Shown: in pieces, positions 4,811 to 60,779 of the stretch | How positions within the stretch are numbered: position 1 is the stretch's first letter | How the letters are laid out: each line of letters starts with the position of its first letter | Translations under genes and position numbers: made by a program | The notes under the pieces: model-generated | Seen by the model: the letters and a program-made list of their open reading frames with translations, nothing else | The model's database searches: none | Told to the model about the DNA's origin: nothing | NCBI GenBank assembly: GCA_963727805.1 | Contig: CAVSHF010000003.1 | Location: forward strand, 1-64,000 | Source of the DNA: an uncultured Nitrospiraceae bacterium | Lineage (GTDB): Bacteria; Nitrospirota; Thermodesulfovibrionia; Thermodesulfovibrionales; Dissulfurispiraceae | Reading direction: 5' to 3' | Length of the DNA: 64,000 nt

Positions 4811-5332
4811 CATACAATGCATGTTGCTATCACTCGGTTGGTCTTTAATCGCTCTCATTGAAGACCGGTCGATCAATGGCCGATTATTTCAACTTGTACG
4901 CATCAGTGTAATCAGGATGCCCCACAGCAAAAAATTACTGTGAGCAGATGAGTGTGCAGCTCGATATTTCTGAATGAATGGTTACTGCACGTAACCTTCG
5001 AATGCAGGAATACTCTGTTTAAAGAAAACACCGAATCAATGTTTCTACCGGTTATCATCGATTTTGCCATCCTGTGCACAGTCGTGATTTTCAGTAGTTA
5101 TCGAGAGCCGACCACCGAGAAGTTATTTTACCTTTAATCGAATATATACGCGACGGCATCGTTTATGACATCATAATCATAAGTTGAGAGACAGAATTGA
5201 TGAGAATTAAAAAAACAGAGAATACACAAAAGACCATAATTAAGATAAGTGGAGTATTGTGATAAACTTGCTGCTTATTATTATATCAGCCTTTATTAGT
5301 CCTCATTGAGTCGCAATGCAACAAAGCCGGCA

Positions 5333-6598
5333 ATGAAATTCTCAGACATTCATAAAGCGATACTGGACAGCATGGGTGAAGGGGTCTATGTCATTGACCG
5401 CGATTTGATCATACTGTACGCAAATCCTGCATCTGTTGAGCTCACAGGATATACAGCTGAAGAATCTGTCGGCCGGCCATGCTATCACATCTTTTGCGAA
5501 CAATCTATCCGCTGCGAAGATATCTGTCCTCCAAAACTGGCGATGAGAGACAAGATGCCGATCCTGCACAAGGAGGCCGAGACGCGAACAAAGGAAGGCG
5601 AGATAAAGCTGACCCAGATATCATTTTCGCCCTTTTATGAAAGCGGGGGTGGAACGTGTAGCGGCGCGGTTATCGTAATTAACGACATCACAGAATTGAG
5701 AAAAGCGGAAGAAAAAATTAAGCAACAGAATATATTTCTGAACACAGTCATCGATGCCATCCCGAACCCCTTCTATGTTATCGACCCGAATAATTATCGT
5801 GTCATTATGGCCAACAAAGCGGCATATCCTGGTGGCGTACCGGAGGGAACAACCTGCCACGTACTGACACACCATAGCATGATACCCTGCAGCAGTGATG
5901 ATCACCCTTGTCCCGTCAATCAAGTCATACTGACTGGCAGGCCAGTCACTATTGAGCACCTCCATTGTGATGATAGCGTTAAATGTCAGGATGTTGAGGT
6001 CCATGCATTTCCTGTTTTCAACAGCGATAATAAAATCCTACAGATTATTGAGTACAGCGTTGATATCTCCGAGCGCAAGCTGGCGGAAAAACGCCTTCAG
6101 GAATTAGCGTACTATGACCAACTTACTGGCATCCCTAACCGCACGCTGCTCTACGATCGCATCAACCGTGCCATGGTGACCGCAAAACGAGAAAATGGAA
6201 AACTGGCCCTGCTGTATCTGGATCTTGACCGATTTAAATCTGTAAATGATCAATTCGGTCATGAGGCTGGGAATATCCTTCTAAAAGAAGCGGCGCTAAG
6301 AATTCTTGCCTGTTTGCGCGAATCAGACACTGTGGGGCGCATCGAGGGGGACGAATTCGCAGTGCTCCTGCCTAGAATTGCCTCGAAGCGTGGTACGATT
6401 GCCCTCGCAGAACGGCTTATTGCTGCACTCTCACAGCCCTTTCAGTGTGCCGCTGCTGAGTGCCGGATAGGTGCAAGCATCGGCATAAGCTTATATCCTG
6501 CCGATGGCGATACTGTCGATGTCCTCTTAGAGAAAGCCGATGCCGCTATGTACTTAGCAAAGGACGAGGGCGCTACTTCTTACCGCTTTTGGGAGTGA
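5333..6598 (+). CDS. PAS-PAS-GGDEF diguanylate cyclase family protein
   Basis: Two PAS domains with C...C..C..CP motifs. YDQLTGIPNR, DLDRFKSVNDQFGHEAGN, RESD I-site; signature reads RIEGDEF. Confidence 0.9.
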   Translation: MKFSDIHKAILDSMGEGVYVIDRDLIILYANPASVELTGYTAEESVGRPCYHIFCEQSIRCEDICPPKLAMRDKMPILHKEAETRTKEGEIKLTQISFSPFYESGGGTCSGAVIVINDITELRKAEEKIKQQNIFLNTVIDAIPNPFYVIDPNNYRVIMANKAAYPGGVPEGTTCHVLTHHSMIPCSSDDHPCPVNQVILTGRPVTIEHLHCDDSVKCQDVEVHAFPVFNSDNKILQIIEYSVDISERKLAEKRLQELAYYDQLTGIPNRTLLYDRINRAMVTAKRENGKLALLYLDLDRFKSVNDQFGHEAGNILLKEAALRILACLRESDTVGRIEGDEFAVLLPRIASKRGTIALAERLIAALSQPFQCAAAECRIGASIGISLYPADGDTVDVLLEKADAAMYLAKDEGATSYRFWE

Positions 6599-6679: not shown

Positions 6680-6713
6680 GTCTGGTAGCTAAGGCTTGTT
6701 GCTGAACCCCAGC
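6680..6713 (-). mobile_element. Orphan group II intron domain VI / 3'-end remnant
   Basis: Minus strand GCTGGGGTTCAGCAACAAGCCTTAGCTACCAGAC aligns to the 3' end of the adjacent intron (GCTAGAGCCTAGTAATAGGTCCAGCTACCAGAC): identical last 11 nt and a GNRA loop. Confidence 0.65.
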
Positions 6714-7001
6714 GACCAGGCAACCTTATTCCTCAAGGAGTCAGATCGAAGTTGTGTAATGAGGAAACAATCTACGACGGGTCAATGATAGTTTTTGTCG
6801 TAAATCACCACATTCCTGGTACCGGTAAAAGTCTGGTAGCTGGACCTATTACTAGGCTCTAGCCCCATAAGAACCGTGCTTGTAAGTTTCCCTACACACG
6901 GCTCAAGCCCTTCATAAGCTGCCTGTTGGCAACCGGTTCCACAACCTCCAACTATCAGCCATGAACTCTTCTCTATGGCGAAGGGCATGCCTCAATCAGA
7001 T

Positions 7002-8474
7002 TCAAGCTTTCCTTCTGGTCAGTCTGTCTCTCAGGTTTGAGGTCGATCGTTCCTCAAAATAAGTTTTAAACTGAGGGTCAAAAGGATTCGCTTCGCCTCT
7101 GATTTTGATATGCCTTTTGATCGGCGTATCTGATGCACATAACAGTGACATCACCATCGGTTTCCCTTTGGAGGGTAGCTTCTCACTGTCTTCAGTCGCA
7201 AAGATCCAGTGTCTGTGACCGGTTGTCTTAAAGTATTTCTCTTTAATCCAAACAGTCCTTTTCTCTGGATGTCTGCGCTTTGCCCATTGCCATAGTGAAC
7301 GCCAAATCTCACTGTCTACATGCACAAAGGCCTCCCTTGCAACGACAGACCTATGGTAATTCGCCCATCCCCTGATGATCGGGTTGAGCATTCTTATCAA
7401 ATTGATCTGTTTCGTAGCCTTGTTATCCTTTATAGCATTCCTGACTTTATCCAGAAAGGCTTTCACATTCTTCTTGGACGGCTTGATCAACAGTTTGCCG
7501 TTGTATTTGCGAATGTTTACACCAAGAAAATCGAAACCTTGATCGATATGCGTGACACTGGTCTTCTCCGGAGAGAGTTCCAGTCCCCTTGCTGAGAGAA
7601 ACTTCTCAACTAGGGGTTTGACTTCCTTTTCCAGCAACTCCTTGGAGTTTCCGGTAATGATAAAGTCATCGGCATACCGAACCATATGAACCTTGGATTG
7701 GTGGCGGAACTTTTTCAGTTCCGCTTCCAATCCATCGAGCGTCATATTAGCCAACGCTGGCGAGATTATCCCTCCTTGTGGAGTTCCCGCTTCTGTCGGG
7801 TAAAGGATTCTTTTGTGAATGTACCCAGCCTTTAACCACTTCAGGAGAATCTTCTTATCCATCGGGATAGTGTCGATTATCCATTCATGGGCGATATTGT
7901 CAAAGCAACCTCTGATGTCGCCTTTAAGTATCCACTTTGCAGATGTTTCTTGTGACAATATTACGAAGCATTGTCCGATAGCATCTTGAGTGGCTCTCTC
8001 CGGTCTGAACCCATATGAGTTCCTGTCCGCCGTGGTTTCCGAAATGGGTTCAAGAGCTAATAGATGCAACGCCTGCATAGCCCTGTCTTTCATCGTCGGA
8101 ATCCCCAACGGACGCATCTTCATGTTGCTTTTTGGAATGTAGACTCTCCTTAACGGAAGGGGTTTATAGCCACGTCTGTTAAGGCTTTTTACTGCGTGAG
8201 ATTTGCTCTGTGGGGTTGACCATAACTGCCTGTCAACTCCCGCTGTTCTTTTGCCTTGGTTCTCAGTAACCCGTTTCACGGCTAATGCCTTGCCAGAAAA
8301 AGAGCTGGTCAGTAGACGTTGCAAGACTTTCACCTTGTTCCATCTGCCTCCCTGCGTCGCCTTTACAATACGCGTTTGCAGCCTCCTTACGTTTCTGATA
8401 CATTGCGCCCATTTAATATCGGGCCATTGTACAGTCCCGTAGGAGGATGCACATACAGCAACAACTGTATTCAT
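7002..8474 (-). CDS. ltrA: Group II intron reverse transcriptase/maturase lacking the HNH endonuclease
   Basis: RVT_N region, RPLGIPT..DR, SYGFRP, GDIRGCFDNI, GTPQGGIISP, YADD, GFDFLG, domain X LNPIIRGWANY; ends after ANPFDP. Confidence 0.95.
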   Translation of the reverse strand: MNTVVAVCASSYGTVQWPDIKWAQCIRNVRRLQTRIVKATQGGRWNKVKVLQRLLTSSFSGKALAVKRVTENQGKRTAGVDRQLWSTPQSKSHAVKSLNRRGYKPLPLRRVYIPKSNMKMRPLGIPTMKDRAMQALHLLALEPISETTADRNSYGFRPERATQDAIGQCFVILSQETSAKWILKGDIRGCFDNIAHEWIIDTIPMDKKILLKWLKAGYIHKRILYPTEAGTPQGGIISPALANMTLDGLEAELKKFRHQSKVHMVRYADDFIITGNSKELLEKEVKPLVEKFLSARGLELSPEKTSVTHIDQGFDFLGVNIRKYNGKLLIKPSKKNVKAFLDKVRNAIKDNKATKQINLIRMLNPIIRGWANYHRSVVAREAFVHVDSEIWRSLWQWAKRRHPEKRTVWIKEKYFKTTGHRHWIFATEDSEKLPSKGKPMVMSLLCASDTPIKRHIKIRGEANPFDPQFKTYFEERSTSNLRDRLTRRKA

Positions 8475-8754
8475 TTGCTTTTCCTCCTTCGAAGGTTCTG
8501 TAAACTATCTTGTAAAGAAGGACCAGGTAGAAGTCTGCCTGCTTTCGCATAGGATGATGTCGCTTTCGCTCAATCCTTATCCGACCCGCTACAGGTCGGC
8601 GTTCGCTTTCTCTACCGTCCCATGCCCACACCCCCACAGGCTTCCCTTGCGGGTTGCTTTCCCTTTCGGGAGAGATATGGGTTTGACAAGTTCCGCACAA
8701 GTAACACTGACGGGTTAGACTCTGCCTTTCCTCCGATAGCTGTTATGTCCGTGT

Positions 8755-8832
8755 AATCCCACATCGAACGGGATTAAACCAGCTATACACCTTTTGGTTC
8801 AAGCCTGATCAGCACCTTTGGCTTGTCTGAAA
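8755..8832 (-). other. Predicted exon-binding sites EBS1 (8762-8767, UCGAUG) and EBS2 (8827-8832, UUUCAG) of the intron
   Basis: EBS1 lies in the loop of the AAUCCC/GGGAUU stem. Both sites are complementary to the 5' exon CTGAAA-GT-TATCGA (9088-9075). Confidence 0.7.
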
Positions 8833-9449
8833 TCACGAAGTTTATCAGCAGTTCACCTATGTTAGTCATACCATCAAGCCCGACACCTTATCCGCCTTGG
8901 TGCTGGCAGATATCTCATTGCCTCACGGCTTTGATTAGACCTTTGCAGGTCAGGTTATCCTTTTCCTGCCCGCACTTTATTCAGGGCAGTAGACTACGCC
9001 TAACGGAATAGACGGTCCCCTAATCACAATGCTTCGTGATTCGAGACAATTACTTGTGCAACCTCATGTCGCACTCGATAACTTTCAGTAGGAGGCATTA
9101 CAATCAATTCGCGGAGACTTGCATATTTCTCACCGATCAAAATCTTATGTTTTATCGGGCTTCCTCTTCAGAACTTTTAACCCATATGGACAGACTGCTG
9201 AACAAATTCCGCAGTTATGTCCTTTGTGATATTGAAAGTATTGTTCCTTTTTCCATTTATCACATACCTGAACATCCAGTATCTCTTCACGCGGCAATTC
9301 TGGATGCCATGCATTACCTTTCAATGCTTTTGCAGGACATGCCTCCACGCAGCGGGTACAACGACCGCAGAAGTTTCTCTCTATGAAGTTCCCCCGAAAT
9401 GACGGACACCCCGAAAGGTTAGGTAAAATATAACCTTGGGAGGTGTCAA

Positions 9450-9752
9450 ATGCAGGAACGTGGTAGAAGAAGGAAGTACGACAAGCAGTTCAAGGAAGAA
9501 GCAGTCAAGCTTGTAACAGAGGGTGGCAGGACAGTAGTTGATGTAGCCGGGAGTCTTGGGATCCATGAGAATCTGTTACACACATGGAAACGGCAGCACA
9601 AGGAAGATCCGGCTGGCAGCTTTCCTGGTAAGGGGCATCAGAAGACCCAGGATGAAGAGCTACGCAGACTGCAGAAAGAGAACGCCAGTTTGAAAGAGGA
9701 TAAAGAAATCCTAAAAAAAGCGTTGGCCATCTTCTCAAAACACCCCAAATGA
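9450..9752 (+). CDS. IS3-family transposase OrfA (HTH)
   Basis: RRKYDKQFKEEAVKL...HTH...EILKKALAIF. A-rich slippery site CTAAAAAAAG near 9711-9720; ATGA overlap with OrfB. Confidence 0.93.
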   Translation: MQERGRRRKYDKQFKEEAVKLVTEGGRTVVDVAGSLGIHENLLHTWKRQHKEDPAGSFPGKGHQKTQDEELRRLQKENASLKEDKEILKKALAIFSKHPK

Positions 9753-10612
9753 AATACTGGTTTATGGACCAGCATAGCTCCGCACATGGGGTGCAGAAGA
9801 TGTGCCGGGTAATAAGAGCATCAAGGAGCGGATATTACAGGTGGAAGAAAGAGCCTCAGAGCAAAAGGCAGAAGGAAAACGAGAAGATACTATTGGAAAT
9901 AAGAGAATCACATAACAACAGTGGCAGGGCCTATGGGAGTCCGAGGATAACCGATGATCTGCGTGACAAAGGGACAAAATGCGGAGAGAACAGGGTTGCA
10001 CGACTTATGAAAGCTAATGGGATAGTCGGCAAAGCAAAGAAGAAATTCAAGGCGACGACGAACTCCAAGCATAATCTGCCGGTTGCGGAGAATCTTCTAG
10101 AGCAAAACTTTATGGCAGAGAGACCCAATACAAAATGGGTCGCGGATATAACTTATGTTTGGACAATGGAAGGCTGGTTATATCTGGCGGTGGTATTGGA
10201 TCTTTATTCCCGTCAGGTTGTGGGATGGGCCATGAGTGATCGTCTAAAGTCAGGCTTTGTTATAGAAGCTTTGAGGCAGGCGGTAGGTCGTCGCGGTCCA
10301 GATCCAGGCTGTATATTTCATTCAGACAGAGGCGTTCAGTACGCTTGTGAGGATTTCAGAGCCGAATTAAAGGCATATGGTTTTATCCAGAGCATGAGCA
10401 GGAAGGGCAATTGTTATGACAATGCTGTTGCCGAGAGCTTCTTCCATACGCTAAAGACAGAGCATGTATATGATTACAGATATGAAACACGGGCAGAGGC
10501 ACGGCAGAGTATTTTTGTATGGATCGAAATGGTCTATAATCGGAGGAGGAAGCATTCAGCACTTGGGAACCTTTCGCCGGTATCCTTTGAGCTGATGACC
10601 TTAGCAGCCTAA
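9749..10612 (+). CDS. IS3-family transposase OrfB (DDE)
   Basis: YGSPRI, WVADITY, FHSDRGVQY, SMSRKGNCYDNAVAESFF, YNRRRKHSALG. Confidence 0.95.
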   Translation: MKYWFMDQHSSAHGVQKMCRVIRASRSGYYRWKKEPQSKRQKENEKILLEIRESHNNSGRAYGSPRITDDLRDKGTKCGENRVARLMKANGIVGKAKKKFKATTNSKHNLPVAENLLEQNFMAERPNTKWVADITYVWTMEGWLYLAVVLDLYSRQVVGWAMSDRLKSGFVIEALRQAVGRRGPDPGCIFHSDRGVQYACEDFRAELKAYGFIQSMSRKGNCYDNAVAESFFHTLKTEHVYDYRYETRAEARQSIFVWIEMVYNRRRKHSALGNLSPVSFELMTLAA

Positions 10613-11410
10613 CTTAACTGGGTGTCCGAAATATCGAGGGAAGACCACTATCGGTGGCCCGCAGGGTAGTTTCATGTCGGTGAAAACGGTTCCCAACCGA
10701 ACCCATGATCCGAACGGGCGCGTGATAAGTTGGCAATGACGACCTATCCATCCCAACCCTGCCCTTGTCGCCGCTGTCTTGTGGGGAAAGTCCCCTTTGA
10801 TATTAACCGTATCAGTACGAATCGAAGCCGCTAGTGGTTGGGATCTAAATCCTCTGACTTTGATTCCGGCTGCTAATGCCTCTGATAATTCTTTGATATG
10901 ATTGTTCACTTTGGCATACTCATCGGCGTATGCTTGATTAGGACCGGTTGAAATGCTGACCATTATTTGTGGGTTCATTGGAATAGCAAATGAAATAGCA
11001 AAAGGGAATCTTTGGCCTGTTTCATCCCGCGGTGTCAGAAAATCCTTAAGATCTGCAGCACCCCATAGGGGAACCTCGTTCAATTCCATCCAATCGGTAA
11101 GCCACCCAGGTAGGATTGTTGAAGGCTCGGACAATTACACCCCACGTTTGCTACGCAATTTTATACTAACTCTTTGTTCTCCTGAAAGTCCGCTTGAGGT
11201 CACGATCACAAGCCGCAATGACCGCTAGCAATCTTTATAATTATAACACTGCTGCAGGAAGGACATACCAGTAAGTAGCTGCCGAGAATTGTCATATTTT
11301 TTCAGAAATCACCAATACCAGGAATTTGGTGATTTCCGGTCTAACACTCCAGAGGCTATTTGTGATAACCTCCGATCGCATAGCATTTGTTAGGGTAATA
11401 TTACAGCGCA

Positions 11411-12916: not shown

Positions 12917-13041
12917 CTACTGAAAACATCAATCAGAGCCGCCAGTATCCGCAAACTGCTGATTTGCGACAATAATCTATCGTGACTGCTTCGCCAAGTG
13001 AATCCTTGAAATACGAGGAGATCTGCATCGATTAGAGTGAT
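12917..13041 (+). repeat. Dispersed intergenic repeat, long copy
   Basis: Shares CTACTGAAA, CCAGTA, TGATTTrCGACAA, TCCTT and GATCTGCATCG..GAGTGAT blocks with 37773-37892 and with the intron-split copy. Confidence 0.7.
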
Positions 13042-28669: not shown

Positions 28670-29048
28670 TATTGGGCTGACTTTCAATACAGCGGAGGTT
28701 TAGTTTTCACTCTCACTAATGCAGGAAGAAATTGAGGAGTTTCTAGAATCACTGCTGTGTTCTGAATGAACACCGCGCGACACGCCCCAAGATAGATAGC
28801 ATGTTTTAATCTGAAATCTTACTTCAGATGGAACGGCACTTGGTGAGGGTTAGTCGGTGCTATACGCATTCTTAACGGGGAGGGCAGACCCTTGATTACT
28901 GGTTGAAACATTGTACGATCGGCCGTATCCTCACACTGGAGATTTTAAGTAGGAACATTGTTGAAACAGGTTCTCGATGTCACCTCTGATATCAGTAACC
29001 CAAAATTGATCAGTTCTAACGTAATCTGATAATGTTAGACAGAATGCT

Positions 29049-29489
29049 ATGACACCATCACAATTACATTCACATGATATATTTCTATTCTTTCCTTTTC
29101 TCTTTGTTTGCATGTGGGTTTTCGTTGGCTTTATCATATCTCGCTTCGGATGGAATTCGTTTGCTACAAGTTACCCTGTTCAAGCGCGACCAGCAGGCCG
29201 TGCATACAACTCTCCATTCGCCTGGTTCGGCACCATCCTGTTTAACTATCGAAGCGTCGTTCGTGTTATATTTACGGATACCGGAATTTATTTTTACGTA
29301 TTCTTCTTGTTCCGGGCATTTCATTCGCCCTTTCTGGTGCCTTGGGATAGAATAAAAAGCATAGAGAGGAAGAACGGATTCTTTCGGGATCGCTACCGGA
29401 TTGATATTGAAGATGCCGCCGGCGAGATTCATGTAATATTACCCTTAAGCATTGAGCCTGATTTGATAAAGTTCAAGAAAACGTCCTAA
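29049..29489 (+). CDS. Hypothetical membrane protein, cassette-like
   Basis: N-terminal TM and FHSPFLVPWDRI motif; GTTAGAC core-site-like sequence at 29034-29040. Confidence 0.75.
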   Translation: MTPSQLHSHDIFLFFPFLFVCMWVFVGFIISRFGWNSFATSYPVQARPAGRAYNSPFAWFGTILFNYRSVVRVIFTDTGIYFYVFFLFRAFHSPFLVPWDRIKSIERKNGFFRDRYRIDIEDAAGEIHVILPLSIEPDLIKFKKTS

Positions 29490-29621
29490 GAGGATTAAAG
29501 ATGAGGATGTTATAGCACTGGTGCTATCTTGATTACCTAAAGAAATCTTGTATAAGGAGACGTATGCCTGCGGTAAAGATAATAAGTAGAAATTAGTGGC
29601 ATGCTGATTATCGTGTTGATT

Positions 29622-30020
29622 TTAAAACAATGCTTCAAAGTCTCGCGGGCGTATAATCCCTATGTTCTGATAGTTCTTTATACCTAATAGATCGGAATCC
29701 CCCGTAACAAGATAATCAGCCCCTGCCGCTAAAGCGCAGGCGAGAATGTTATCATCATCCGAGTCTCTACAAATGTCTATAATACTAATGTCATGCTCAA
29801 TAATTTTGCCAGCGGCTTCACTAACAGTTTCCATCGCTAAATCGCTTTCTTCAGGCGAGAGACGAAACTTTTTTGTCAGAATACGCCTGAGCTCGTTCAT
29901 GATAAACGGGCATAAAATAAGTACGAATTCACCCACCCTCGCCCTGTGTAATAATTTCGAGCAAAGGCCTTCAGTAACAAGCGCAGCGATTAGGACATTT
30001 GTGTCGAATACGGCTATCAT
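29622..30020 (-). CDS. PIN-domain toxin of a type II TA system
   Basis: VFDTNVLIAAL, CRDSDDDNILACA, YLVTGDSDLL. Confidence 0.92.
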   Translation of the reverse strand: MIAVFDTNVLIAALVTEGLCSKLLHRARVGEFVLILCPFIMNELRRILTKKFRLSPEESDLAMETVSEAAGKIIEHDISIIDICRDSDDDNILACALAAGADYLVTGDSDLLGIKNYQNIGIIRPRDFEALF

Positions 30021-30235
30021 GATATCGATTTAAACACGTCCTCTTCGCTGATGATGCCAAGTTTCTTAGCTTTTGGCCCAAGCTTCTTCTGCACTGTCTT
30101 GAGTTTTATTTCCCATAGATATAAGCTCAGGGACTCTTTCACTATATCGCTCTTATTTCGCCCGGTAGCCTTTGAAAAACTGTCAAGCTCTCTTGATACC
30201 TTATCCGGTAAACTCACAGATAAAACAGTCCTCAT
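30017..30235 (-). CDS. RHH/CopG-family antitoxin
   Basis: LSVSLP...GRNKSDIVKESL; AGGAGG RBS; ATGA overlap with the toxin; TGTATTACA palindrome upstream. Confidence 0.9.
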   Translation of the reverse strand: MRTVLSVSLPDKVSRELDSFSKATGRNKSDIVKESLSLYLWEIKLKTVQKKLGPKAKKLGIISEEDVFKSIS

Positions 30236-30562
30236 ATAATACCTCCTGTATTACAATCCACTACATAAGTGAATTATACTCTTGGCAGCATGGGTAAATC
30301 AACATCGCCCCTGTTGACAGACAGCGTTTCACATCAACACGATAATCAGGACGCCTGAAATCGTGTAACGAAGCGCTTCAACGGGAATGACGGAAACTAC
30401 CCACGCCTCCCATGAGCATTATCAGAAATAATCATTGCCACTGCAGTATCCCTAAAAAAGAATGATTATCAGCAGTCACCATAGTCTATTCTGCGTTGCA
30501 GTGTGATATACTTTTGGCAGAAATGCCCATGTTGGATTAATAATTGTTAGAGATAAAATAAA

Positions 30563-31066
30563 ATGATAAATAAAATGATAAATAAAATTAAAGCTAGCCG
30601 CTCAATCGCATGGTGCTATGGATGTTTCGGGCTTATGTGGATGGCGACGCTTATCATTCTAATCATATTTCCAGTACGGCATTACGGCATAGAACAACCC
30701 ATGGAAATTCTTAAGGCGCTCCAAGCAGCTTCAGGCATAATCATATATTTACTTGTGATGTCATCAATAAACATTATCACGGCAATAGCCGTGTGGCGCG
30801 TAACTTCACTTTCAGAGAAAGCACAGCGTATTGTTTTGCGCATTGCCATCTTTTTCGCTGTGGCTGCAGCCATCTTCTTAATTACGACAATTGCATCTTG
30901 GTTCGTTAATAAAATGCCTGACTGGTTCAGCCCTTTTAATAATGTTTTACCAGCGGCTCTTTTCTCATTCGTATACAGCTACTTTGCTTTTGAACTGAGA
31001 AAATTACTAAGAATCTCTAACAAGCGGCTCGACCCAGACGCGACAGGACTTAACAATTACCGATGA
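30563..31066 (+). CDS. Hypothetical 4-TM membrane protein, integron-cassette-like
   Basis: Four hydrophobic segments; bounded by GTTAGAGAT (30546) and the complementary ATCTCTAAC (31013). Confidence 0.7.
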   Translation: MINKMINKIKASRSIAWCYGCFGLMWMATLIILIIFPVRHYGIEQPMEILKALQAASGIIIYLLVMSSINIITAIAVWRVTSLSEKAQRIVLRIAIFFAVAAAIFLITTIASWFVNKMPDWFSPFNNVLPAALFSFVYSYFAFELRKLLRISNKRLDPDATGLNNYR

Positions 31067-31261
31067 AATCATCGATAGTCGTGTCAAAACTTCACCGAGA
31101 TAGTTTTATCGCTTTCATGTCGAAGTCTTCGCGGCAGCCACATCTAGGCTCTTGACTAGCTTTCTTATAATCGAGATAATACATGGCACAGTCAATACAC
31201 TTTGTTTCTAGTGGTAATGCTCAGGGATTATTGTTGGCTGCCCGTCTGTTATTTATTGGTA

Positions 31262-31459: not shown

Positions 31460-31754
31460 GCAATAAAACGCTTGTATGAATTAACAGCAGCCTGGAGACT
31501 ATTTATTCCGAAGCCTATCGTAGCAATAAATGCTAGCAGGGGATAGATTAATGCTACGTCCATGCCGTTCGAATAAGAAAGATGATTGGCTACTTTACCA
31601 ATCCCCTTTCTACGGGACTCCTTTAAACTTTAATTTGAGACAAAGGTGGCGCTGATCGCATGCGGTGCAGTCACATTGTTAAATGTATAGCGCGTCACCG
31701 CTCCCACTGATGTGCCATCTGGTCTTCCCCCGATATTTCGGACACCCAGTTAAG

Positions 31755-32618
31755 TTAGGCTGCTAAAGCCATCAGCTCAAAGGATACCGGCGAAAGGTTC
31801 CCAAGTGCTGAATGCTTCCTCCTCCGATTATAGACCATTTCGATCCATACAAAAATACTCTGCCGTGCCTCTGCCCGTGTTTCATATCTGTAATCATATA
31901 CATGCTCTGTCTTTAGCGTATGGAAGAAGCTCTCGGCAACAGCATTGTCATAACAATTGCCCTTCCTGCTCATGCTCTGGATAAAACCATATGCCTTTAA
32001 TTCGGCTCTGAAATCCTCACAAGCGTACTGAACGCCTCTGTCTGAATGAAATATACAGCCTGGATCTGGACCGCGACGACCTACCGCCTGCCTCAAAGCT
32101 TCTATAACAAAGCCTGACTTTAGACGATCACTCATGGCCCATCCCACAACCTGACGGGAATAAAGATCCAATACCACCGCCAGATATAACCAGCCTTCCA
32201 TTGTCCAAACATAAGTTATATCCGCGACCCATTTTGTATTGGGTCTCTCTGCCATAAAGTTTTGCTCTAGAAGATTCTCCGCAACCGGCAGATTATGCTT
32301 GGAGTTCGTCGTCGCCTTGAATTTCTTCTTTGCTTTGCCGACTATCCCATTAGCTCTCATAATGCGCGCCACTCGGTTTTCTCCACATTTTGCCCCGTTG
32401 TCACGCAGATCATCGGTTATCCGTGGACTCCCATAGGCCTTGCCACTGTTCTTATGCGATTCTCTTATTCCCAAAAGTATCTTCTCGTTTTCCTTCTGCC
32501 TTTTGCTCTGAGGCTCTTTCTTCCACCTGTAATATCCGCTCCTTGATGCTCTTATTTCCCGGCACATCTTCTGCACCCCATGCGAGGAGCTATGCTGGTC
32601 CATAAACCAGTATTTCAT
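31755..32618 (-). CDS. IS3-family transposase OrfB
   Basis: Same DDE motifs as 9749-10612. Confidence 0.95.
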   Translation of the reverse strand: MKYWFMDQHSSSHGVQKMCREIRASRSGYYRWKKEPQSKRQKENEKILLGIRESHKNSGKAYGSPRITDDLRDNGAKCGENRVARIMRANGIVGKAKKKFKATTNSKHNLPVAENLLEQNFMAERPNTKWVADITYVWTMEGWLYLAVVLDLYSRQVVGWAMSDRLKSGFVIEALRQAVGRRGPDPGCIFHSDRGVQYACEDFRAELKAYGFIQSMSRKGNCYDNAVAESFFHTLKTEHVYDYRYETRAEARQSIFVWIEMVYNRRRKHSALGNLSPVSFELMALAA

Positions 32619-32917
32619 TTGGGGTGTTTTGAGAAGATGGCCAACGCTTTTTTTAGGATTTCTTTATCCTCTTTCAGACTGGCGTTCTCTTTCTGCAGTC
32701 TGCGTAGCTCTTCATCCTGGGTCTTCTGATGCCCCTTGCCAGGAAAACTGCCAGCTGGATCGTCCTTGAGCTGTCGTTTCCATGTGTGTAACAGATTCTC
32801 ATGTATCCCAAGACTCCGGGCTACATCAGCTACTGTCCTGCCACCCTCTGTTACAAGCTTGACTGCTTCTTCCTTGAACTGCTTGTCGTACTTCCTTCTT
32901 CCACCACGTTCCTGCAT
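32615..32917 (-). CDS. IS3-family transposase OrfA
   Basis: Near-identical to 9450-9752. Confidence 0.93.
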   Translation of the reverse strand: MQERGGRRKYDKQFKEEAVKLVTEGGRTVADVARSLGIHENLLHTWKRQLKDDPAGSFPGKGHQKTQDEELRRLQKENASLKEDKEILKKALAIFSKHPK

Positions 32918-33354
32918 TTGACACCTCCAAGGTTATATTGTACCTAACCTTTCGGGGTGTCCGTCATTTCGGGGGAACTTCAATCCACACTCACCGATGC
33001 TACGGAGTAGCCTGCATTGGTGGTTCCCATTGGTAAAGGCTAATCGCTTTGCCGTAAAAAATTGAAAGTATCGCGTTAGCGTGTGCAACAAAACTTGCAT
33101 TGTCGAGAAGCGGACTTTACCTTAGTACACTGCCCATCAGGTCGAATTGCGGCAATTACATTTCAGCGTGTTGAGATAATTGCGAATTGTCGGTAACTGC
33201 CTCAAATAGCGCTTTGGAGTTTATGTTGAAACACACAACAGAATAAAATCTTTTTAAATCACTTCATAAAAGTAAAAAAATCACGATAAATAATAATGAT
33301 GATGCTTGCTTGAGATCATTGTGATTCAAAATACGAAAACAGGAGGGCTCAACA

Positions 33355-37489: not shown

Positions 37490-37772
37490 CCTAAGTTTCT
37501 CTAATTAAAAAACTCTATTGGGAACAGCCGTTAAGCATTTCTTCTTCCATGACGAAACTATAGCATAAGTGGGACGTTTTGGAAAGAATATAACTGGTCA
37601 AATCAAGGGAGTTAATGACAAGGTTTTTTTTGTTGACTAATTTCGAATGAACTCATCGAAATTCCTCTACGGGCGGTCTTATCAATTGCTTGGCGAACAC
37701 CACATTTCTCAGAGATGCAAATCGCTGAGTGTAACAAGGAGACACTCGACAAAACGGCATGGTAGTTTCAAG

Positions 37773-37892
37773 CTGAAAGTCATCGATTTTACCAGTACCA
37801 GGAATGTGGGGATTACCCAATAAAACTTTTATATCGACTGAGTCGGTAGCCTCCTTATAACACGCCTTGATCTGCATCGCTGAGGAGTGATT
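37773..37892 (+). repeat. Dispersed intergenic repeat, intact copy carrying an empty intron homing site
   Basis: CTGAAAGTCATCGA|TTTTACCAGTACCAGGAATGTGGGGATT versus joined intron flanks CTGAAAGTTATCGA|TTTTACCGGTACCAGGAATGTGGTGATT; similarity continues for about 120 bp. Confidence 0.85.
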
Positions 37893-37988
37893 TATCCGCC
37901 AAGTAACAATTTGAAAGTCTGGCTGAGTATTGGGTTGCGATTAACCTAGAGGGGTCGGTTTATAAGATTAACCCACTTAAAAAATGCC

Positions 37989-39110: not shown

Positions 39111-39796
39111 AATCCACCTCCTATGTTTCTAACATCATCTTGCTCAAAACAACATGGCCGAACATACCAAAGCCTATCCTTCGGCAGCTCGGCCATCTCC
39201 TTTACAAGATCCGCCGCTTTCTGTCGTCCCTCTCACAAAGAGTTTAGTTTGTCTGGCATAGTCTCAATATAATCAAACATTAGCAGAAAACAAGTCACTT
39301 GTCCATTAATGGTTGTTATTTATGAATGCGTGAGAAGGTCGCGAGTTGGCCCACCGAATATGTTGATTGTACAAACATGGCGTCCCCAGCGTTTCCTAAA
39401 AGACTTATTTTTCGGGAAATCTAGCCCCGCAAATATCAGACTTGCTTTGACAGTTTCTACACAAACAATCTTCACTAAATGCGACATTGGTACTACAATT
39501 ATAATGGCAACGTCCAGCGGAGAATTCTCACTAGATGAATCGCTCGGCAACCTGTCGACTCTTCTCTCACGGGCTATATTACTATACCATCCACTTGCTG
39601 TGTAACTATAAAATGGATAATCTTCTACCAGAAGGATAGGCTCCTTATGTGCCAACGTGACTGGGCACAGTAGGAAACGTCTGGGCTGTGACTGCTTTGC
39701 ATTTTGACACGAGTCATGGATCTGTTACGTTCAGGTACTCGGAGGAGACCATGAGCTGACAGACGGCATTTTTTACAGCAATTACACGGGGGTTAC

Positions 39797-48891: not shown

Positions 48892-49996
48892 CTTTTCATT
48901 TATAACTGACTCAATGCATGGGACAACTAGCGTGCTGAAAAAAAGAAAAAGGCTACTCCCGTACGGGCGGAATTCTCGTGTCAGACATTGTTTGTTTATT
49001 TTTGGTGTTGTTATTTCCTTTATCTTTTTTTTGATTCTCAATCTCGTTAAGTTTCTGAGCTTTCTCAAGTGGCAGTTCGACTTCTTTGTAATGCAGGATT
49101 CATCTCTCATATGCTTTATTATATTCCTCATAGTCAGCGCGGATTGTAGCACCTGCAAATAACCCGTAGAATGCGGAAAGCATCAGAACAATTATACAAT
49201 ATGGTCTCCAGTAGCTCGCTAGGTGACGCCTGTCACAGAATCGCCGACAGTTTCAGAATATAGTTAAATAAGGGAGGCGGGTATGGCTAAAAATTCCAGA
49301 GCAATGAGTCTGTGTTGCGTTGCGAAATCGGGATTAGGAGTGGCCGTAGCCCCACTTTTTGAACTTGTATTGATTGCTACGCTGGCAGCTTCAATGGTCA
49401 GCGGTAACCAGACTCTCATCAGCGTCTTTGCTTTATGGTCCGTACTATTCACACTGCCATGCTGCGCCGCTTTCAGAGTTCTCGCAGGCGACGCAAAAGA
49501 TTACAGGCAAAACAGGATAGGTGTGCCCAAAGATAGTCTCGCGCCGGTCTTGTCACACCACAGACCACTACTGCAGGGGGAATGTGTTTGATAACAAGGT
49601 ATAGTTGGGTTCATGAGAGGCAGAAAACATGGCAGGAGAGACGAGAAGCTGGAATCGACCGTCACTTGAAACAGACAACATGAAAATAGATGCATTATGA
49701 AAGCTAACAGTCATCGTCACGATAATACCTCACATACCTGGGACTTTCAGGACATCTGCTCGCAACAGCTCCAATATGTTGCGAGCAGGGTCCTTCCTTT
49801 ACTTGGCTATTTTTGCTTAGAACCAGGCAAGCAATGATTCCAAAGAGAGAGATAGCGAAAGAGCGTTCGAACCGGTGCTGTGACGAACGCAAGCCCTGAT
49901 CAAAGGATCGTCATGAACAGTTTATAGGCTTTCGCTTGTTACAAGCATTATACCCATTATAAGCTGACCCCTTGAAACCGGTTGTAACAATTAATT

Positions 49997-50056
49997 TCAG
50001 AAATCATTACATTCCTGTTACTGGCGGCACCGATAGTTTTCAGGTGACATCGAGAA
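49997..50056 (-). repeat. Dispersed intergenic repeat, core copy
   Basis: Minus strand TTCTCGATGTCACCTGAAAACTATCGGTGCCGCCAGTAACAGGAATGTAATGATTTCTGA; the first 15 nt are identical to 28971-28985. Confidence 0.7.
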
Positions 50057-60036: not shown

Positions 60037-60609
60037 ATGATACGCAAAGAAAGAATGAATAAAACCGGCTTACTTCTAATAGATATTCAGCGTGATTTCT
60101 TACAGCCTTCTGGACGGATGTTTGTTGGCAAAAAACAAGCTGACAACGTTATTAAATGTGCTTTGCGCCTGATATCTTTTGCTAAGAGCAATAATGTGCA
60201 GCCTATTTTGATAGTGAATCGGTTTCCAGCCAATGATCGATTCGGAAATTTCTTCCGTCGTCATGCGGCTATTGCCGGAAGTGTGGGTGCTGAAATAGAC
60301 CCAAGGATCGTATCACAGGGCTTCCCTTGTTTTACCAAAGAAACGTCTGATGCATTTTCGAATGCGGAACTTAATGATTTCTTGAGAGGACAGGGAATTA
60401 CTCACCTTATTATTGTCGGTGTCTATGCGGAGGGGTGTGTGCTATCGACAGCAAAGGGCGCCATGAAACGTGGATATGAGGTAACTATTGCCTCAAATGG
60501 TGTTGAATCTAATAAAGAATGGAAGAAGCGATTGGCATTTTGGGATATTCAATGGAGAGGGGCGCATGTTGTTAGCAGTTCGGATATCCAAAGAGACTCC
60601 ACCTCCTAA
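60037..60609 (+). CDS. Isochorismatase-family cysteine hydrolase
   Basis: LLLIDIQRDF, FTK..SDAF, VGVYAEGCV.STA; start may be ATG 60055. Confidence 0.9.
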   Translation: MIRKERMNKTGLLLIDIQRDFLQPSGRMFVGKKQADNVIKCALRLISFAKSNNVQPILIVNRFPANDRFGNFFRRHAAIAGSVGAEIDPRIVSQGFPCFTKETSDAFSNAELNDFLRGQGITHLIIVGVYAEGCVLSTAKGAMKRGYEVTIASNGVESNKEWKKRLAFWDIQWRGAHVVSSSDIQRDSTS

Positions 60610-60779
60610 TCATTAGGGCTGCCGATACTTGGAATTTAGTGATTCCCTGAAGAAATCATCACAAATGTATAGTGCAATTATATTGACTTGGTGGCTACAA
60701 AAGAGGGATATTATACCAAGTCAGTTCGTTACGCTGGCATTGCTCGTCACCATTCAAGCTTACGCGGAGAAAGTTTAAC

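Follow-up and report, generated by a model that had tools for sequence, protein, structure and literature searches.

The 64,000-nt stretch of DNA analysed here (the window) belongs to the genome of an uncultured Nitrospiraceae bacterium, designated G000, of which C2, C3 and C5 are contigs; other G numbers denote related genomes. On its minus strand, the window carries a CL1/IIB1-like group II intron of 2,244 nt (6831-9074) inserted in one copy of a dispersed repeat. The boundaries, GTGCG at 9074 and AC at 6831, fit the GUGYG..AY rule for group II introns. The intron contains an Rfam match to D1D4-7 at 8884-9015 and domains V-VI at 6831-6906 (RF00029, 59.5 bits), and encodes, also on the minus strand, a reverse transcriptase (RT)/maturase of 490 aa at 7002-8474 with an intact YADD motif, a TIGR04416 match above cut-off, and RVT_N, RVT_1, and GIIM domains. 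A group II intron had been proposed at 6725-9095 in an earlier sequence-only reading, and the ends, domains, and protein bear this out, although that span corresponds to the intron plus the repeat. The intron-encoded protein (IEP) lacks a C-terminal endonuclease region and ends ahead of a tail, which we read as HNH-like, that is present in an 83%-identical relative. Among solved proteins, the nearest to the IEP is 6ME0, the IIB1 maturase of T. elongatus (E 2e-187 versus 1e-40 at best for others), and the CL1/IIB1 assignment was made by this comparison, not by a tree with reference classes. The closest titled relatives of the IEP, 89% identical, are in an uncultured Nitrospiraceae bacterium. 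The intron is single-copy in G000, where its sole further BLAST match is a 134-nt fragment at C3:151.3 kb, and it lies about 70 nt 3' of the stop codon of a co-oriented gene interrupted by an IS3-family insertion sequence (IS), from which it may be transcribed. By its sequence, the window intron itself looks like an ordinary IIB1 element.

Joining the intron flanks yields one copy of a dispersed repeat, for which the profile search returned 63 nhmmer matches at E ≤0.01 after three iterations. The joined flanks had been noted to recur uninterrupted at 37773-37892, and this copy was recovered at 37770-37897 (86/125 aligned columns; 85% over the first 55 nt, E 8e-11), while the closest copy was found at C3:1101126 (99/125 columns). 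The repeat consists of two short boxes, A and B, at fixed spacing around a nearly free spacer. The two-box scan of G000 gave 60 matches for type I sites, in which box A is followed by inverted box B at an offset of 37, and 41 matches for type II sites, in which box A is followed by direct box B at an offset of 44; shuffled DNA gave 6 and 3 matches, respectively, over all spacings. A composite arrangement, with a type II site followed by a type I site 92-93 bp later, was also observed. At the 20-bit threshold, 119 sites were found in G000 and 52 in an 880-kb sample of the about 4.8 Mb of G003. Modelling the repeat by profile search and two-box scan, as the sequence-only reading had suggested, thus gave about 100-120 sites per genome overall. 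The strong sites lay outside open reading frames (ORFs) in 100 of 105 cases in a genome that is 81% coding, which supports the earlier description of a multicopy non-coding repeat. The joined site of the window intron is of type I and scored 16.0 bits for box A and 18.4 bits for box B at a spacing of 37. Its 5' exon is box A itself (9075-9091, minus), and its 3' exon (6792-6830, minus) comprises the remaining spacer and the inverted box B (6810-6792), followed by a tail (6722-6791, minus) that is conserved in a subset of type I sites.

Fixed patterns were used as an independent check on the box models. The type I pattern had 23, 13, 13, 10, and 1 matches in G000, G003, G006, G004, and G001, respectively, with all reversed controls at 0, and no match in G002, G005, or G007. 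The type II pattern had 29 matches in G000, 6 in G004, 3 in G231, and 1 each in 9 others, and was absent from 239 of the 251 genomes of the order; reversed-pattern controls over both searches gave 0 to 1. By these counts, the repeat appears to be largely confined to the genus. The sites cluster in IS-rich regions. They do not fit tRNA-linked island ends, as only 3 of the 48 tRNA/tmRNA genes of G000 had a site within 3 kb. Iteration from a one-box motif drifted to a generic motif. The earlier description of the repeat as a hairpin did not hold: the copy at 37770-37897 folded no better than its shuffles (z -0.34 and +0.90), 69 type I and 40 type II sites had mean fold z values of -0.80 to +0.02, and the two sides of the pseudo-symmetry paired just as often as column composition predicts.

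Recognition of box A by the window intron is predicted to involve three elements. Exon-binding site (EBS) 1, UCGAUG at 8762-8767 (minus), lies in the ID3 loop of a predicted 7-8 bp stem and pairs with the last six exon bases (intron-binding site (IBS) 1, 9080-9075) with one G-T wobble; its earlier assignment agrees with both the fold and the co-variation with exons. EBS2 had been placed at 8827-8832 as UUUCAG. As described for IIB1 introns (PMC8643678), EBS2 forms 5 bp and a single further base, EBS2a, pairs with exon position -14, and in this register the five bases UUUCA at 8828-8832 (minus) stand as EBS2, pairing with exon positions -13 to -9 (IBS2, 9087-9083), whereas the sixth base, G8827, drops out, the predicted partner of the C at exon position -14 (IBS2a, 9088) being the G of EBS2a at 8834 (minus). 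EBS2 and EBS2a of the window intron then pair 6/6, as they do in 12 of the 15 introns tabulated, with the EBS2a combinations G:C, U:A, and C:G; the misses are G010 C72, G221, and G250b, two of which fit a one-base shift by eye. EBS1 was fully paired, wobbles allowed, in 7 of the 12 introns with a readable loop, and both EBS1 and EBS2 co-vary with the exons of relatives. The empty site at 37773 pairs perfectly with the window intron (12/12), as had been claimed. In contrast, the motif at 31064, also put forward as a candidate target, has a gap of 1 nt versus the conserved 2, is not among the matches of at least 11/12, and by our own count fails IBS2 and IBS2a in the conserved register. Positions in G000 with at least 11/12 Watson-Crick pairs numbered 86, of which 12 were in repeats and 74 elsewhere; by our own arithmetic the repeats cover <0.5% of G000 positions.

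A search with the 5' RNA of the intron through the order gave 21 readable junctions, 9 within the genus (1 in G000, 6 in G003, and 1 each in G004 and G005) and 12 outside it. Copies and flanks in relatives were among the checks that had been proposed, and all nine genus junctions lay in box A, with scores of 11.5-19.9, while 0.8% of random positions reach 10. The insertions occurred at three exact offsets of the 17-nt box, namely A+17 sense (3), A+14 sense (4), and A+0 antisense (2), and box B was present at the expected spacing in six of the nine, the other three having no 3' flank. Outside the genus, 2 of the 12 junctions (G221 and G170) reached a box A score of 10, and neither was accompanied by box B. 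Each register had its own EBS1/EBS2 set: UCGAUG/UUUCA, GAGAUU or AUGAUU/AAGUA, and CUACUG/AAUCA, respectively. EBS2 and EBS2a were fully matched in five of the six testable genus introns. The proposed pairing with a multicopy intergenic repeat is thereby extended from the window intron to relatives that use other EBS sets on the same box. In a tree of 17 rows with the EBS masked, from which G005, two deleted G003 copies, and G236 were left out as too short, the window intron, an A+0 antisense intron, and the G004 intron formed one clade with support of 96/95. With the EBS masked, the window intron shares 94% identity with the A+0 antisense intron, and yet the two have different EBS sets and lie on opposite strands. 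Since this clade holds introns with different EBS sets and strands, one change of register and strand likely took place within it. The A+14 introns fell outside the clade with weak support. Several G003 introns (L153, L155, L144-L146) carry an insertion at about intron position 65-73, which is either a 2-kb element, bounded by terminal inverted repeats and containing a 620-aa frame, or a 175-nt derivative that shares its ends.

Other mobile elements also strike the boxes. A second intron family in G000 (Rfam D1D4-2) has twelve copies: ten are ORF-less and 638 nt long, and two, of 1,835 nt, encode a 420-aa RT that is 63% identical to S. meliloti intron RTs. In 8 of the 12 scored junctions, this family was inserted at the outer edge of box B. 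The ten near-identical ORF-less introns represent two distinct sequences (C3:611932, and 11 other places including the ORF-bearing copies), and the two ORF-bearing copies differ from them in EBS1. Bacteria are described as having few introns without an ORF (PMC4424553). Two families that we take to be IS110-like inserted at A+3 (6/8) and A+10 (3/4), and a presumably IS91-like element inserted at A+1 in 4/8 copies. Among the controls, none of the 44 copies of 13 other families lay on the boxes, control ends being BLAST edges and hence a rougher test; a two-copy, presumably IS110-like family with untrimmed ends (0/2) was left out of the 44. A third intron family of three copies (C3:647273, C3:2327161, and C5:119610), with an RT frame of 450 aa, has in its 5' flanks a different short repeated motif that bears no relation to boxes A and B.

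The window contains further sites of both types. A type I site at 5042-5097 (minus) is co-oriented with the occupied site, and the two bracket a PAS-GGDEF gene at 5306-6598. The empty type I site with tail at 37770-37897 (plus) has an inverted tail copy to its left at 37694-37769; flanked by tails in opposite orientations and with a left arm resembling box B, the segment 37694-37897 has the appearance of a product of recombination, within the core, between two inverted sites. A type I-like site with tail (spacing 40) was found at 12917-12975 (plus), and type I sites at 49991-50046 (minus) and 60600-60655 (plus), the latter where an isochorismatase module, with a duplicate at C5:335451, ends. 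Three co-oriented type II sites are located at 28890-30475 (minus; box A at 28952, 29589, and 30475), and another type II site at 31161-31223 (plus) adjoins the 31064 motif. Just beyond the tail of the occupied site, a domain VI-like relic of the same intron lineage was noticed at 6680-6713 (minus), with 85% identity over 34 nt to the domain VI of G075 (a weak E of 0.33) and an exact 15-nt match to three other relatives; it is possibly an older, 5'-truncated insertion. Two of the three IS3-family copies lie in the window (9383-10647 and 31720-32982). The former interrupts a 4Fe-4S-type gene (about 9145-11134, minus), which is free of the IS3 copy in G004, G001, G006, and in contigs of three sequencing runs. 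A c-di-GMP-I riboswitch match at 39180-39258 (minus), barely over the gathering score, was found upstream of a Tat-signal protein.

Comparison of gene order suggested that exchangeable gene modules probably meet at the repeat. Upstream of the intron, G004 has the end of the 4Fe-4S-type gene in common with the window and diverges at the CTAC of box A; past that gene, G004 and G001 have a type I-like site (by eye) and then other genes, and no site was seen at the corresponding place in G006. Among the site flanks, 46 pairs share one flank and none share both, most of them being IS or intron copies, but three non-IS pairs (88-94% identity) stop in box A, one of them continuing as type I at one locus and as type II at the other; non-IS flank pairs ending in box A number four in all. 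In G006, four co-oriented type I sites within 2.9 kb (L213:13377-16297) separate modules of one or two genes, including HicAB, and a type I site pair (L215:12294-12938) surrounds a ParE-type module.

Several candidates for the identity of the repeat and for its enzyme were tried and rejected. On the tests run, the sites are not dif/pdif, since they are 56-63 bp long versus about 28 bp with XerC and XerD arms around a 6-bp core, and the dif-like site of G000 scored at most 2.3 bits on either box; that dif-like site was located at C3:516950-517000, at a GC-skew switch. They are not attC either, with no folding bottom strand with paired R and L boxes, the mean z values given above, and no co-variation, nor repetitive extragenic palindromic (REP) sequences, since no stable palindrome is formed. 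A gene remnant is argued against by the fixed-length, free-sequence spacers, a judgement made by spacer analysis with no protein search of the translation. The repeat thus failed the attC, dif, and gene-remnant tests that were run. No PF07508 match, which would indicate a large serine recombinase, was found in G000, where small serine recombinases gave four matches. IntI was not found in G000, G004, or G006, and was above cut-off in the site-less G007 and in G005. IntI-less attC clusters exist, so the absence of IntI alone is not decisive. No dedicated tyrosine recombinase common to G000 and G006 was found beyond the XerC/D-like pair. A solo tyrosine recombinase at C5:27486-28322, present in 11 of 61 related genomes, has its own short inverted repeats, and the repeat model matched 3 of its 13 loci. 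An element with two tyrosine recombinases beside a type II site in G231 (L159:8929-10876) has its own terminal inverted repeats and was not found in G000 or G006; this multicopy element occurs in G231, G003, and 22 other genomes, one G003 copy being at box A of a type I site. Y1 transposases were present in five of five genomes including the site-less G007, and are therefore uninformative. Among the multicopy families whose ends were viewed, no transposase- or recombinase-bearing element had these box ends; a single-copy parent may still exist.

Taken together, the window intron is a CL1/IIB1-like mobile intron that matches box A, and its lineage has probably specialised on box A within the genus by changing its guides while keeping its target. 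According to the description of group II introns (PMC4424553), the ribonucleoprotein reverse-splices after exon position -1, and endonuclease-less introns prime from the replication fork. Because the endonuclease region is absent here, the intron would have arrived by retrohoming primed at the replication fork. EBS mutants reading an abundant intergenic box would then be favoured: box A is probably the best-conserved and most abundant intergenic sequence, and thus EBS variants reading it would persist. The boxes themselves would be half-sites at which a protein binds double-stranded DNA, placed where exchangeable gene modules meet, and crossover would occur close to the first five bases of box A. 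The earlier view of the repeat as a renewable safe-harbour target survives in part. The target is multicopy and intergenic, whereas renewability is weakened by the single copy and the 11 well-matched sites that stand empty, and safety can only be presumed, as the insertion would break the site if recombination takes place there.

A wider reading, which we advance tentatively and put somewhat short of an even chance, is that the two-box repeat is the recombination site of an undescribed non-integron gene-cassette system of this genus, and that two unrelated group IIB lineages have evolved to track its boxes by base pairing alone, a class D-like lineage reading box B and the CL1 lineage having been re-aimed, in three registers, at box A. 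With an insertion at A+17, 2.2 kb come to lie between box A and box B; as a result, genes would be spared, but the site, if recombination takes place there, would be inactivated.

Several observations weigh against specialisation on box A or against its extension to a cassette system. The intron has not spread in G000, where 11 of the 12 well-matched repeat sites are empty and 74 of the 86 good EBS matches lie outside repeats. Six of the nine genus junctions come from one genome, G003, and the EBS were readable in just six of the nine. The G004 intron is at A+17, but its EBS2 is mismatched to its own exon, and the out-of-genus G170 intron likewise. The box models were trained on G000, window site included. 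Among the matches listed for contigs of four sequencing runs, which cover only small shares of the window, there was no joint across 6830/9075 and no empty allele. BLAST ends between 880 kb of G003 and G000 were not enriched at sites (8/728, 1.1%, versus 0.9%), and no cognate recombinase was found by the searches described above.

Some of these points would also be accounted for without any specialisation, if the intron landed wherever its EBS pairs and purifying selection spared only insertions into dispensable stretches between genes in plastic regions, the repeat being the commonest sequence there. The single copy, the many good matches outside repeats, the clustering of sites in IS-rich regions, and the divergence of EBS into intergenic sites in T. 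elongatus (PMC2882425) are consistent with this explanation, but it is improbable given that all nine genus junctions are confined to three exact positions in a 17-nt box, that the three EBS sets each pair with box A, and that the 44 control element copies in G000 avoid the sites. It is more doubtful still that the IEP or a host factor bound to the box, and not EBS pairing alone, steers the introns to box A. Such steering would explain why the G004 and G170 introns sit exactly 17 nt into box-A-like sequence without a matching EBS2, and why several unrelated elements strike the same boxes; against it, EBS2 and EBS2a are fully matched in nearly all testable genus introns, and the two mismatched cases are possibly damaged or recombined copies. 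A third explanation concerns the repeat, which could be a decayed family of miniature inverted-repeat transposable elements or transposon ends, the intron merely targeting the remains of mobile elements. Composite units of about 230 bp (type II, type I, and tail), spacer subfamilies that show copying, and many partial copies point in this direction. We nevertheless consider it rather unlikely, since the boxes keep fixed distances (37 and 44) across a spacer whose sequence is nearly free, none of the multicopy families viewed included a transposase-bearing element with the boxes at its ends, and co-oriented arrays bracket modules of one or two genes.

Specialisation on box A can be compared with several known systems. 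The CL1/IIB1 introns T.el4h (Th.e.I3) and EcI5 use the same register of EBS1, 5-bp EBS2, and EBS2a as described (PMC8643678), while the window copy differs from them in lacking the endonuclease region. In T. elongatus, introns are reported to have diverged in their EBS into families with different and intergenic targets and with ORF-less derivatives (PMC2882425); there, EBS divergence leads to different targets, whereas in this genus three EBS sets converge on one 17-nt box. Group IIC introns insert recurrently in repeated intergenic sites, among them attC, the recombination site of cassettes (PMC4424553, PMC7923331). They recognise a DNA stem-loop, have a short EBS1, and lack EBS2, whereas the window intron uses EBS1, EBS2, and EBS2a on a site that does not fold, and no IntI was found in G000. 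An assignment of the window intron to group IIC or IIC-attC was accordingly rejected, since its EBS2 co-varies and its target does not fold. A CL1/IIB1 intron, UHB.I2, is known in a cassette array, and no exon conservation is reported for it or for other IIB introns beside attC (PMC7923331). Such IIB (CL1, class E) introns beside attC are reported as a few single cases, whereas the present association is genus-wide, with matched EBS variants and on a non-attC site. IS110-family elements target REPs (PMC1525189) and IS1202-family elements target pdif/dif (PMC10132070), both being likewise specialised on an abundant host repeat or recombination site; they are DNA transposons, however, and the repeat here is neither palindromic nor dif-scoring. 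RmInt1 targets IS elements. Introns of the RmInt1 type likewise combine a multicopy target with an endonuclease-less IEP, and the RT of the second intron family resembles those of S. meliloti introns (63% identity, as given above); in the present case, however, the target is non-coding and a parent IS was not found. In the literature covered, which did not extend to supplements and most subscription papers, neither this repeat nor a convergence of EBS variants on a single repeat box was found described.

The intron itself is unremarkable; the interest lies in the base-pair evidence that its lineage has probably been re-aimed repeatedly at one box of this repeat. The genus introns offer a natural series in which the guide RNA of a retroelement changes while the target stays constant, whereas the pattern reported elsewhere is divergence to new targets, and such a series allows a test of whether EBS sequences are selected by a site that is both abundant and harmless. 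Several element families, through the offsets at which they insert, map the conserved boxes and thereby narrow the search for the enzyme of the repeat, and the compact, cassette-like L213 and L215 arrays of G006, with their toxin-antitoxin modules, are the best place to look for excision. If the tentative cassette reading is true, the introns on these boxes would be the base-pairing counterpart of the IIC-attC introns.

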